The position numbers and the translations under genes are program-made. A stretch of 7,057 nt of DNA, from contig SUPR01000139.1 in the NCBI GenBank assembly GCA_005191425.1, forward strand, positions 1 to 7,057, given 5' to 3'. This stretch comes from Candidatus Helarchaeota ASGARD archaeon Hel_GB_B (GTDB lineage Archaea > Asgardarchaeota > Lokiarchaeia > Helarchaeales > HEL-GB-B). Under the pieces are notes generated by a model. That model did not search any database. It saw only the letters and a list, made by a program, of their open reading frames with translations, and had not been told where the DNA came from. Shown piece by piece: positions 3,150-7,057 of this stretch (position 1 is its first letter; every line of letters begins with the position of its first letter).

Positions 3150-3941
3150 ATGAATTTTTGGAATTTAGGTCTTTTAAATTATCTAATCTTGAGGTTTCAA
3201 TTTGAATTTTTTATATTTATGACAATTTTTAATTTCTCATTAATAGTTTTTAATTCTGTTTCATTAGGATTATTGATATATATTAATGTGTTAAAATTTA
3301 AGATTTTTAAATATAATCCATATAAGACATTTCCTGTATGTTTATTAGCAATTTTCTTGGGATTAAATTCTATTATTTGGATTGATATCTATTTTGTTTT
3401 AGGAATTCCTAGCAATTTCCTTTTATTAAGTCAAATATGGACTTCTATTTTTATCAATATGTTCTTTGCTCTCTATACAATCCTTGTTTGGAAGAGTAAA
3501 ATTCTCCAAAGTATCGTAATTCATATTAATATGTTATTAAATTCAACATATCTTACACTTGCTGTTCTGGACGACTTAGAACTACGTCAAATATATTCTT
3601 ATTTCAGTATATTTGTTGCTTTAATAGTTACTATATTATTTGTTCTATTTATTAAAATAAAACAATTTGCTCCAGCTCCAGGAACTATTCCCAATTCTCT
3701 TGAAAAATGCGTATCTATTTATATTAATGTCCTAAAAAATAAAAAAGAAAAAATATTCCTAGACCAGTTATCTATGTCTGATAATAGTTTCGTTAGAAAT
3801 CATGCACTTAAAACTCTTTATCTATTTGACAATAAAAAAATAACAAAAAATAACTTAAGAAATAACTTATTTTTGCTTATTTTAATCGATAACAATATTC
3901 CGACAGGTAAATTTAGAAAAATATATTATAAGAAAAAATAG
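3150..3941 (+). CDS. Hypothetical integral membrane protein (~5 TM helices) with a ~95-aa basic C-terminal soluble tail
   Basis: Hydrophobic stretches at roughly aa 20-48, 61-86, 90-114, 118-140 and 148-168, then a Lys-rich tail. AGGT at 3139..3142 precedes the ATG at 3150. An alternative start is the ATG at 3219. Confidence 0.75.
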   Translation: MNFWNLGLLNYLILRFQFEFFIFMTIFNFSLIVFNSVSLGLLIYINVLKFKIFKYNPYKTFPVCLLAIFLGLNSIIWIDIYFVLGIPSNFLLLSQIWTSIFINMFFALYTILVWKSKILQSIVIHINMLLNSTYLTLAVLDDLELRQIYSYFSIFVALIVTILFVLFIKIKQFAPAPGTIPNSLEKCVSIYINVLKNKKEKIFLDQLSMSDNSFVRNHALKTLYLFDNKKITKNNLRNNLFLLILIDNNIPTGKFRKIYYKKK

Positions 3942-4291: not shown

Positions 4292-5212
4292 TTGAGTAAG
4301 AAAACGCAATTAAAAGTATTAATAATGGGCTTAAGGTCTGCAGGTAAAACGACACTAGTCAAGAATGTATTTGAAGGCAAGGAGTGGGATGAAATAAAAA
4401 ATTTAGAGCCTACTGAATTTGTAGAAACTGTCCAATACAAGTACCGTGGGCTGTTAAAAGTGACTATCTTTGATGCGGGTGGTCAAAAACAATTTATTTA
4501 TTCATACTTTACAGATTTATGGAGTAATAAAATATTCAGTGGAGTAGGCGTATTTATTTGGGTTATTGATTCATCTAATCCCGAATTATTTAATGAAGCC
4601 AAGCAAGAATTAAAAAAAGCTTTAAAATTTTTGAATGACTACAGTCCAAATGCCCGTAAATTCTTGATTGCAAGTAAATATGACCGTCATAAAATGTCAT
4701 TAGACCAAATTAGGATGGAATTTAAGGATATAAACTTAGATGAGGTATCAGCCACAAGTATACCCCTTGGAATTGCAAGAGAAATTATCTGTACAATAAT
4801 TGATTACTCTTTAATGGATATGTTTGATACACAAATTAAAAAATTAGAAAAGATTTTAGCTAAATTCAATAAAAATGAAAATGCATTAATGAGTATGTTA
4901 GTTAATAAAAATGATGGTCTTGAAATTGCATCCGCTATAAGTATTAAAAAAATTAATCCTAAATTAAAATATCTATCAATGAAAACTTTATATACTCCAA
5001 TGGAAAAAGCGCATTCAATCTTTTCATCTTTAAAGCAAGAAACTTGTGATTTCTTAGTTTCTCATTTAGGTGATTATTTCATAGTAGTTTTTAATCTTAA
5101 TCAAAAAATTGTTCAAATTTCAGTCCTCGAAGAACGAAATTTTAAAATAGCCTCAATGTTAAAAAGGCTTGAAGCAATGAAATCTCAAGTTTTAGAATGT
5201 ATTGAAACATAA
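4292..5212 (+). CDS. Rag/Gtr1-like small GTPase with C-terminal roadblock/LAMTOR-type domain
   Basis: G1 GLRSAGKT (aa 13-20), G2 T41, G3 DAGGQ (61-65), G4 SKYD (128-131), G5-like ATSI. Rag-typical segments are GGQ..F...YF, IFSGVGVFIWVID and SPNA.KF. From ~aa 182 a roadblock start follows (LEKILAKF...MSMLVNKNDGLEIASA). The start codon is TTG. Confidence 0.88.
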   Translation: MSKKTQLKVLIMGLRSAGKTTLVKNVFEGKEWDEIKNLEPTEFVETVQYKYRGLLKVTIFDAGGQKQFIYSYFTDLWSNKIFSGVGVFIWVIDSSNPELFNEAKQELKKALKFLNDYSPNARKFLIASKYDRHKMSLDQIRMEFKDINLDEVSATSIPLGIAREIICTIIDYSLMDMFDTQIKKLEKILAKFNKNENALMSMLVNKNDGLEIASAISIKKINPKLKYLSMKTLYTPMEKAHSIFSSLKQETCDFLVSHLGDYFIVVFNLNQKIVQISVLEERNFKIASMLKRLEAMKSQVLECIET

Positions 5213-5258
5213 AAAATTATAATTATTCTTAAAAAGTTCTATATTATTTGTTTAAAAA

Positions 5259-5732
5259 TTAACCGTTTCTGTTTTCTTCTTTTTTCCCAGTACCAAAAAA
5301 TTCCTTCATTTCTTGAATTAATGCAGCGCGGATTGAAGTTGGCTCTTTTGTTCTTTTTATTTCATCTTTTGGAATTGGTTTTAACAATTTGCTACGAAAT
5401 GACTTGATTTCATTTTCATCTGGAGCTACGGTCATCGTTGTTGCATTGGACTTAACGGTAATAATTCTATTTTCTTCATTTTCAATTTTTATCTCTTGTA
5501 AACCTGATTTTGTAATTTCTGATTGTTGCTTATATTTTAATTGCTCAGAAATATCATTTAAATATGTATTATAACTATTAAACGCTTCAGTAACTTCCCT
5601 GCTCCAATCTTCCAGTCTAGAAATTCTATCATCTAAATCTAAAAAATTTTTTTCTAACATTCCAAGTGCATTTATTATCATCATAATAAATTTTTCCATT
5701 TTTTCTGTGGACAAATTCTCATTTTCAGACAT
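5259..5732 (-). CDS. Hypothetical protein: N-terminal coiled-coil helix, low-complexity linker, C-terminal WH2/beta-thymosin-like motif and amphipathic helix
   Basis: 157-aa ORF with ATG start and SD-like GAGATGA at 5740..5746. Heptad-like helix at aa 12-66. The CDS is well supported; the functional call is inference. Confidence 0.8.
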   Translation of the reverse strand: MSENENLSTEKMEKFIMMIINALGMLEKNFLDLDDRISRLEDWSREVTEAFNSYNTYLNDISEQLKYKQQSEITKSGLQEIKIENEENRIITVKSNATTMTVAPDENEIKSFRSKLLKPIPKDEIKRTKEPTSIRAALIQEMKEFFGTGKKEENRNG

Positions 5733-6108: not shown

Positions 6109-6513
6109 ATGATTGGAAAAATCCCTGAAGACATGTTAGAAATAGTTCTTGAAACAATACCAATTGAATTTTCAATAGTAGATAAAGATGATAAAGTATT
6201 TGCTTGGAATAAACATGAAACTCGTCTATTTAAAAGACCTCTTTCAGTAATCGGAAAAGATGTCCATAATTGTCATCCTAAAAAAAGTGTTCATAAAGTA
6301 GAACAAATTTTACGTGAAATGAAGGAAGGAAAAAGGGATAAAGCTCGATTTTGGATTGAACTTTCTCTCGACCCATCTCAAAAAAAGCAAAAAGTTCTTA
6401 TTGAATATTATGCACTACGCGATTCCAATGGAAATTATGTCGGATGTTTAGAAGCGACACAGAATATTACAGAAATTCAAGGACTAAAAGGAGAAAAAAG
6501 GTTATTAGATTAA
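6109..6513 (+). CDS. Stand-alone PAS domain protein (PAS_10 type, like the C-terminal PAS of DUF438 proteins)
   Basis: LETIPIEFSIVDKDDKVFAWN, R..SVIGKDVHNCHP, FWI and IEYYALRDSNGNYVGCLEATQNIT match the PAS_10 pattern, including the NCHP motif and the terminal PAC-like strands. Confidence 0.88.
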   Translation: MIGKIPEDMLEIVLETIPIEFSIVDKDDKVFAWNKHETRLFKRPLSVIGKDVHNCHPKKSVHKVEQILREMKEGKRDKARFWIELSLDPSQKKQKVLIEYYALRDSNGNYVGCLEATQNITEIQGLKGEKRLLD

Positions 6514-6667
6514 GTATATCCCCCTATTTTTTTCTTTATAAACTCAAATTATTAGTGAATTTAACTTAATCTTTTTATTGGTGTATTTTTTCTTAATGTT
6601 TACTATAAAATTAATTTAAAAATTATAACATAGTTAATGTCTATTAAATTAATTGATTAAAATAAAA

Positions 6668-6697
6668 AATATGGGATTAATTAATATGGGATTAATT
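6668..6697. repeat. Perfect 15-bp tandem duplication (AATATGGGATTAATT x2)
   Basis: Read directly: 6668..6682 and 6683..6697 are identical. Confidence 0.9.
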
Positions 6698-6726
6698 ATG
6701 AAAACAAATGATTAAATAGAAAATTT

Positions 6727-7057
6727 CTAAAAAACTTTGAATATCCACAAAAATAAGAAAACAAATAAACATATAATGATAATTTGAGCTGAAATCAATA
6801 TAATTGTATATGTGTATTTTTCAAAAAATTTTAATTTATAGGGTTTAGATTCATCAAAAATTTCTGGAATTCCTCTATCATCATAAATAATTTTAATATC
6901 AATTTTTTCTAATTCTTTTATGTATTGATTTGGATCTTGTGATTCTGGCGGTAAAATTCCAATACCATCAATTTTCCCTTCAGCATAAAGTTTTGCAGCT
7001 ATTGCAGCTGGAAAACCTGTTAAATTTCCCATTTTTAGAACTGGAGTTGCATATACT
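6727..7057 (-). CDS. 3' part of a saccharopine dehydrogenase-like (Sacchrp_dh_C) oxidoreductase with a C-terminal TM tail; 5'-truncated by the window edge
   Basis: The frame stays open past the track's ATG to the window end (...VYATPVLKMGNLTGFPAAIAAKLYAEGKI.G.GILPPE). This matches the family's terminal motif M.RTTG.PAAI.A...L.G.I...GV..PE. The hydrophobic segment YTYTIILISAQIIIICLFVFLFLWIF sits just before the TAG. Confidence 0.75.
   Translation of the reverse strand, partial: VYATPVLKMGNLTGFPAAIAAKLYAEGKIDGIGILPPESQDPNQYIKELEKIDIKIIYDDRGIPEIFDESKPYKLKFFEKYTYTIILISAQIIIICLFVFLFLWIFKVF

Follow-up and report, generated by a model that had tools for sequence, protein, structure and literature searches.

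A helical Asgard protein with two conserved C-terminal peptides is inherited together with a Rag-like GTPase

The window analysed here is a whole contig of 7,057 bp (C47) from the AT-rich metagenome-assembled genome (MAG) of the Asgard archaeon Candidatus Helarchaeota Hel_GB_B (3.54 Mb, 94% complete; genome label G000), and the analysis centres on a 157-aa protein (P0001) whose gene lies tail to tail with a gene for a Rag/Gtr1-like GTPase. The analysis reveals that this protein and one specific Rag-like GTPase orthologue are co-inherited. By sequence comparison, the protein belongs to the Helarchaeales/Baldrarchaeia branch of an unnamed superfamily whose members combine a helical head with an arm that varies and is often Pro-rich, and with an invariant helix at the C-terminus that we term the docking helix. 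The reading we favour, and hold to be about evenly balanced between right and wrong, is that the protein is an oligomeric adaptor or effector arm working with the neighbouring GTPase; all functional readings given here are inferred from sequence and genomic context. As a kind, we rate the protein as akin to small-GTPase-associated coiled-coil adaptors. It resembles WASP/WAVE/VASP-type factors by its layout and LAMTOR1/Ego1 by its partner, but by sequence it does not show the defining features of any of them.

The partner gene (4292..5212, forward strand) encodes a full-length Rag/Gtr1-like GTPase of 306 aa with a G domain, a long helix, and a roadblock-like C-terminal domain (Pfam Gtr1_RagA, 3.1e-25). 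When its AlphaFold2 (AF2) model (predicted local distance difference test, pLDDT, 83.6; predicted template modelling score, pTM, 0.82) was compared using Foldseek, the top matches were yeast Gtr1 and human RagA at full length (TM 0.66-0.72, E 3e-21), with the solved Lokiarchaeal Rag-like GTPases (8yl2, 9m28) ranking below them. The two genes converge on an AT-rich spacer of 46 bp between their stop codons (5213..5258), and elsewhere, among the lineages examined, the distance between the 3' ends runs from a gap of 76 bp to an overlap of 4 bp, the latter in one Baldrarchaeia locus. The tail-to-tail pair of the window recurs in G126, G123, G124, G125, and G127, which together with the window represent all three GTDB families of its order, and it is found again in G007, G008, and L061, which belong to another class, the Baldrarchaeia. 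Across 400 genomes of the phylum, an orthologue of this GTPase (E<=1e-98) was present in eight, exactly those that carry this branch of the protein family and no others. Moreover, an all-against-all comparison of the flanking open reading frames (ORFs) identified only two genes common between lineages, namely the family gene (11 of 11 loci) and the GTPase (9 of 11). Paralogous Rag-like GTPases do not have the family gene alongside.

Two further observations concern the surroundings of the partner gene. At Baldrarchaeia loci (L061:1616-2992, reverse strand; also L092), the gene directly upstream of the GTPase encodes 458 aa with a weak Folliculin match (PF11704, E 0.012, below the cut-off). Folliculin is the GTPase-activating protein (GAP) of RagC/D in eukaryotes, and the Baldrarchaeia GTPase with its 458-aa neighbour may form a Rag plus GAP-like pair. 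In a sister family of the window's order (L062:10210-11550, L088-L090), a conserved, unnamed gene of 193 aa precedes the GTPase, and close by is an IFT52_GIFT-like gene of 446 aa, an arrangement seen within that family only.

The gene of the window protein (5259..5732, reverse strand) is an open frame that starts with ATG, codes for 157 aa plus a stop, and has conserved homologues. The public gene call (P0002) is shorter, at 133 aa with its start at M25; this start is probably wrong since the two closest homologues leave residues 10-24 unchanged. A Pfam scan of the 157-aa protein returned nothing above threshold and only coiled-coil families below it. A first, sequence-only reading of this stretch had singled out three segments of the protein that occur in the same order as in eukaryotic nucleation-promoting factors, namely an N-terminal assembly helix, a WH2/thymosin-like motif, and a C-like amphipathic helix, joined by a low-complexity linker. 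In an alignment of 18 branch members (the window protein and 17 homologues), conservation peaks on precisely these three segments, which are thus real, conserved parts of one protein, and the linker between the helix and the second segment is variable. The labels WH2-like and C-like are readings of the sequence and no observed property.

The first of these parts lies in a long N-terminal helix (aa 3-76; 5505..5726, on the reverse strand like all the parts that follow), which is predicted with a pLDDT above 90 and has a conserved hydrophobic core at aa 13-27. Within it, a heptad-repeat, coiled-coil-like stretch (aa 26-65; 5538..5657) keeps an unbroken 3,4 hydrophobic spacing, read from the sequence at L26, F30, L33, I37, L40, (S44), V47, F51, Y54, L58, I61, and L65, and is a probable oligomerisation element. 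The spacer that follows (aa 77-103; 5424..5504; pLDDT below 50) differs across the family in both length and sequence and is Pro-poor here, unlike in relatives, where it is Pro-rich or polyproline. The whole protein contains four prolines, its sole Trp is W43 in the head, and a C-terminal acidic segment with a conserved Trp (the A of VCA) is not present, in agreement with the sequence-only reading, which had recorded the lack of a polyproline tract and of an acidic Trp tail.

Beyond the spacer lie two short conserved peptides. Motif 2 (aa 104-122; 5367..5423), formerly read as WH2/thymosin-like, follows the pattern P-D-E-x-E-I-x-x-F-R-x-K-L-L-K-P-I-P-K, with F112, R113, L117, and P119 invariant among the 18 members. 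A hidden Markov model of motif 2 matches one place in the genome, this ORF only. The motif is specific to the Helarchaeales/Baldrarchaeia branch and is absent from the Loki-type branch described below. Motif 3 (aa 131-146; 5295..5342; P-T-S-I-R-A-A-L-I-Q-E-M-K-E-F-F), formerly read as a C-like helix, is the docking helix common to the superfamily; P131, R135, L138, E141, and K143 are invariant among the 18 members. The protein ends in a short mixed-charge tail (aa 147-157; 5262..5294) that reads G-T-G-K-K-E-E-N-R-N-G, has a near-neutral charge of +1, and is without the A-M-K-K-V stretch found behind motif 3 in the majority of branch members that lie outside the window protein's own family. AF2 run on the family alignment predicts the helix at 3-76, disorder at 77-99, a short helix at 106-116, and a helix at 134-156.

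Close homologues are few. Three were found in a collection of 5.8 billion proteins, and a search of 1.84 billion proteins gave 13 representatives at E<=1e-3, of which 11 have the same architecture and two are long coiled-coil proteins, while among the 400 genomes of the phylum a branch member was found in seven further genomes. All homologues bearing an organism name come from Asgard MAGs. Most members have an extra short N-terminal helix that is absent from the window protein, and a sister family of the same order has members with strongly Pro-rich spacers. A Pro-rich region stands before the C-terminal motifs in P0008, L013, L016, P0009, and P0012, as it does in the Loki type.

By searching the same 400 genomes with a profile of the C-terminal module (A3), we identified one weak match per genome in 113 of 135 (f6) and 11 of 14 (f5) genomes of two Lokiarchaeia families, always on motif 3, with the matched peptide usually forming the end of open frames of ~125-190 aa. 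These Loki-type ORFs consist of a helical head, a coiled coil, polyproline runs (PPPPPG-type), a near-invariant end helix, and then K/R residues, their tails being net basic (+2 to +4). The Loki-type family comprises at least 201 clusters, all annotated 'hypothetical' and without a Pfam domain. Comparison of the branch heads (A2) with the Loki-type heads (A5) by hhalign gave a 97.2% probability (E 2.9e-11, 62 columns), and the two branches have in common the end-helix consensus P-x-S-[LI]-R-x-x-[LI]-x-x-E-[LM]-K-x-x-F. The heads are homologous, and the window protein therefore falls, by sequence, in a divergent branch of an Asgard superfamily that is large and undescribed. Relative to the Lokiarchaeia family (for example P0020, P0076, and P0085), the window protein has a homologous head, the same end helix, and the same order of parts, whereas it lacks the first short N-terminal helix, and its branch adds motif 2, has few or no polyproline runs in the spacer, and has a dedicated Rag-like GTPase neighbour that the Loki-type paralogues lack.

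Profile searches of the PDB (A3, A2, A5) returned a chance eS27 match, WTAP, and trimeric coiled coils, and it is the part of the Loki-type profile equivalent to the heptad stretch that matched solved parallel, mostly trimeric, coiled coils; the ESM Atlas gave unnamed archaeal clusters and generic long-helix models only. The superfamily is not described in the literature searched, and the new element is the Helarchaeales/Baldrarchaeia branch, with a further invariant peptide and with a Rag-type GTPase to which it is strictly paired.

Several observations were made on superfamily members away from the window. The window's own genome holds two tandem Loki-type paralogues (G000:C93:50703-51532; L099:1097-1932), after which a V4R plus Roadblock/LC7 protein is encoded on the opposite strand (L099:1944-2855). 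The long forms P0011 and P0012 (L060:8001-9041) carry an acidic, E/K/D/P-rich repeat as a C-terminal extension that ends in I-L-L-V-[VI]-D-D-S-E-T, at a locus without the GTPase neighbour. Loki-type loci (L083-L085) have conserved neighbours of their own, an all-helical 207-aa protein upstream (~6235-6868) and a 575-aa protein downstream (~7567-9357), both unnamed; a homologue of the 207-aa neighbour was not found in G000 by blastp and phmmer with one query.

The module is also found joined to other domains. Among the ORFs matched by the profiles, four of the longer ones were examined. One of 413 aa (L105, 685-1923; G125:C63) places the family head, a spacer, and the docking helix behind an Arf/Gtr1_RagA-type G domain, and a second (L106, 1384-2730; G266:C3) carries the docking helix behind a Ras-type G domain. 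In a third, the docking helix is joined to leucine-rich repeats (L107, 1314-2483), and in the fourth the whole module is joined to HEAT repeats (L108, 1477-2706; G127:C1). When fused forms were sought by a region search with the docking helix of P0140, nothing scored. No fusion to gelsolin was seen in the 31 gelsolin ORFs inspected (30 two-domain loci and the one of the window's genome), whose tails end in a zinc ribbon. Compared with Asgard Arf/Rag-like GTPases that bear such a C-terminal extension (for example L105), the window has the same module in the same order, which in L105 is covalently attached behind the G domain, whereas in the window it is a separate gene and the GTPase retains its own roadblock domain instead.

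Under the reading that we favour, the heptad helix would pair or trimerise the protein, the spacer would serve as a flexible arm, and the two end peptides would act as short docking motifs. In its favour are the tail-to-tail pair with its exact co-occurrence, the sharing of these two genes alone between lineages, the lack of such pairing among paralogues of either gene, the fusions of the module to G domains, and the full Rag fold of the neighbour. Motif 2 perhaps contacts the GTPase or its roadblock domain, for which it is the natural candidate since no branch other than the one with the GTPase partner carries it. Motif 3 more likely reaches a common target because it is kept whatever the module is attached to; actin is one candidate among several and, having a helix-binding cleft, a legitimate one. 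Throughout the superfamily, the polar residues of motif 3 (S, R, E, K) do not vary, and the end helix has a low hydrophobic moment (0.03-0.28); a specific protein contact fits these features better than a membrane helix does.

Several points weigh against a working partnership of this kind. The GTPase neighbour is absent at two family loci, those of P0004 (a 3-kb contig) and of the long form P0011, and the two genes are convergent, so that they are not co-transcribed and form no operon. The eight genomes are kin and amount to about four lineages, so the co-occurrence represents fewer independent events than it appears to, and the pattern would look no different had the two genes been transferred jointly as a block. 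The co-occurrence search itself scored the best five candidates per genome. Lastly, the link may be limited to this branch, because the much larger Loki-type branch is not found beside a Rag-like GTPase.

Among the alternatives, the one that survives best, although we consider it unlikely, is that the protein is a stand-alone oligomeric actin-monomer binder or tandem-site nucleator that acts independently of the GTPase, with motif 2 as a WH2/thymosin-like helix plus LKKT element and motif 3 as a V-C-like helix for the actin cleft. Conservation peaks at motifs 2 and 3, and for motif 2 the prediction is a short helix and then an extended basic/Pro stretch, as in WH2 domains and beta-thymosins, where a short helix likewise precedes an extended Leu-plus-basic stretch; motif 3 is a second helix with the pattern R-x-A-L-[IL]-x-x-[IM]-K. 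The AF2 helix at 106-116 (pLDDT about 75) abuts L-L-K-P and is the amphipathic helix expected of a WH2 domain, which by itself is a weak indication. A further point is the A-M-K-K-V stretch of most branch members outside the window protein's own family. Motifs 2 and 3 may also resemble individual WH2 sequences, a likeness that we treat as a lead rather than a test. In relatives, moreover, the end helix comes straight after a Pro-rich or polyproline arm, an arrangement like that of WASP- and VASP-type factors, and the occurrence of the docking helix on many different proteins suggests a common, abundant target. The window's genome has one actin gene, one actin-related gene, and a gelsolin gene, and the niche would be open, given that the Asgard actin regulators named in the literature searched are profilin and gelsolin only. 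The sequence-only reading had counted it as adverse to an actin role should the motifs not be conserved in homologues or should homologues prove common in lineages without actin; neither is what was found, since the motifs are conserved, the named homologues are all Asgard, and actin was detected in 53 of 61 sampled genomes of the phylum.

The sequence searches for a WH2, thymosin, or WASP-type identity consistently gave the opposite result. In six-frame searches of six genomes (G000, G125, G124, G007, G146, and G256) at E<=10, the Pfam WH2 model (PF02205) matched unrelated places only and no family member, and the Thymosin model likewise missed the family in these six genomes. Neither Thymosin (PF01290) nor WASH_WAHD matched anywhere in G000 at E<=10. 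By hmmscan, the 18 branch members (E<=10) had no WH2, Thymosin, or WASH family among the matches listed, and 24 Loki-type members had none either, giving sub-threshold coiled-coil families only; PDB searches with the family profiles brought up no chain of the WH2, thymosin, or WASP kind. Matches to CCDC53 on Loki-type paralogues (E 0.017-0.075) were sub-threshold and look like coiled-coil noise. The WH2 signature consists of Leu, two basic residues, and then Thr or Val (PMC9433394). A pattern search for L[KRH][KRH][TV] found it absent from the window protein, in which motif 2 reads L-K-P-I in place of LKK[T/V]; the Pro of L-K-P is invariant in the family and stands at the second basic position of WH2. 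In most other branch members an M-K-K-V stands after motif 3, which the window protein lacks. The WH2/thymosin identity proposed for aa 104-120 is thus not borne out.

The broader genomic setting also speaks against a dedicated actin factor. No actin, profilin, or gelsolin gene adjoins any family locus examined, and the family profiles match Lokiarchaeia and Baldrarchaeia only, whereas actin is found across the phylum. Loki profilins are reported not to bind polyproline (PMC8410842). Models for ARPC4 and ARPC2 had no match in G000 (94% complete), the ARPC2 result being weak because the control genomes were also silent for it. Judged by these sequence tests, the window protein does not belong to the WH2, thymosin, or WASP/WAVE/WASH families. 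What stands of the proposed WASP/WAVE/WASH-like regulator is the order of parts and the polyproline arms of relatives; membership does not stand, since no sequence test was passed.

The remaining likeness to actin-assembly factors, one of layout and of the helix-plus-basic pattern, is real, and it is sharper in relatives with polyproline arms. WASP/WAVE/WASH and Ena/VASP proteins have the same order of an oligomerising or complex-forming helical region, a Pro-rich arm (here in the relatives), and short C-terminal helices, and a small-GTPase link is common to the window protein and to the WASP- and WAVE-type factors. The window protein differs from them in lacking the acidic Trp tail, an EVH1 domain, a GBD/CRIB region, and a WASH_WAHD match. 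Its probable oligomerising helix is N-terminal, whereas that of VASP is C-terminal, and its associated GTPase is of the Rag type, not of the Rho or Arf type.

Side observations on the actin system of the genome include the best match to the WH2 model, a sub-threshold one (E 0.25, 14 bits) at G000:C172:8333-8395 on the reverse strand, inside an open frame of 1,016 aa. A second actin-family match of 152 bits lies at G000:C168:13385-14515 (reverse strand) inside an open frame of 861 aa. Two sub-threshold profilin-like matches were recorded at G000:C149:14843-15148 (forward strand) and G000:C118:11294-11563 (reverse strand), one of them on the contig of the actin gene. Readings of motifs 2 and 3 as a PIP-box, MIM1, or RPEL element were dropped, the spacing being unfit when compared by eye with consensus patterns.

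Distinctly unlikely, in our judgement, is that the neighbourhood is an inherited accident, with the protein a coiled-coil scaffold whose end peptides bind something else, for example a cytoskeletal, ESCRT, or membrane-remodelling component. The convergent orientation, the two loci without the GTPase, and the other conserved neighbours of the Loki-type branch (the unnamed genes of ~207 and ~575 aa) would all fit that case, and small GTPases and roadblock proteins are so numerous in Asgard genomes (PMC10933270) that chance contacts come easily. An accident fits poorly with the pair standing alone in its conservation across lineages of two classes, with a presence and absence that coincide exactly in 400 genomes, and with the independent fusions of the module to G domains.

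Quite improbable is a Ragulator/LAMTOR1-like membrane tether, in which the head would bind the GTPase and the C-terminal helix with a basic tail would anchor the complex in place of the lipid anchors that are missing in archaea. The putative partner is indeed a Rag-like GTPase, the Loki-type tails are net basic, and in the fused forms the module sits at the position of the hypervariable membrane anchor of eukaryotic small GTPases. LAMTOR1 is ~160 aa long, against 157 aa here. Like the window protein, LAMTOR1 (p18) of Ragulator, with Ego1 of the yeast EGO complex, is small, extended, and largely disordered, and it is a partner of Rag GTPases (PMC10933270); for the window protein such a role is suggested by the strong genomic pairing and co-occurrence and by the Rag fold of the neighbour. 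Asgard small GTPases are without terminal lipid-anchor cysteines or other eukaryote-type lipid anchors, their roles and partners being unknown (PMC10933270). The end helix itself seems ill suited to a lipid surface, with its low hydrophobic moment and with invariant polar residues that are unusual for a lipid-binding helix; it is internal in L106 and L107, and the tail of the window protein is near-neutral. The LAMTOR model of Pfam (PF15454) has no match on contig C47 at E<=10, and the window protein further differs from LAMTOR1/Ego1 in having a long coiled-coil head and no N-terminal lipidation motif.

Very doubtful, finally, is that the pair forms a GTPase-switched actin-assembly device, in which the GTPase would recruit or release the oligomeric protein and the two end helices would bind actin monomers or filament ends. 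Eukaryotes use small GTPases to activate assembly factors that are Pro-rich and of the WH2 type, and such a device, if true, would be an archaeal forerunner of this logic that arose without Arp2/3.

Returning to the adaptor or effector arm that we favour, its interest lies in the abundance of switches without named partners: Rab-, Arf-, and Rag-like GTPases are encoded by the dozen in Asgard genomes, and a co-inherited pair offers a concrete two-component system among them. Binding of the end peptides to the GTPase would make the protein the first partner dedicated to a Rag-type switch in archaea. Binding to actin would make it a third class of Asgard actin regulator, linking GTPase signalling to the cytoskeleton before eukaryotes.

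The rest of the contig is occupied by genes of other kinds. A GH38 alpha-mannosidase (245-2896) and a Cys-rich DUF6485 protein (39-248) are encoded on the reverse strand, and a multi-pass membrane protein of 263 aa with no family (3150-3941) on the forward strand. A stand-alone PAS_10 domain protein (6109-6513, forward strand) is encoded divergently from the gene studied here.

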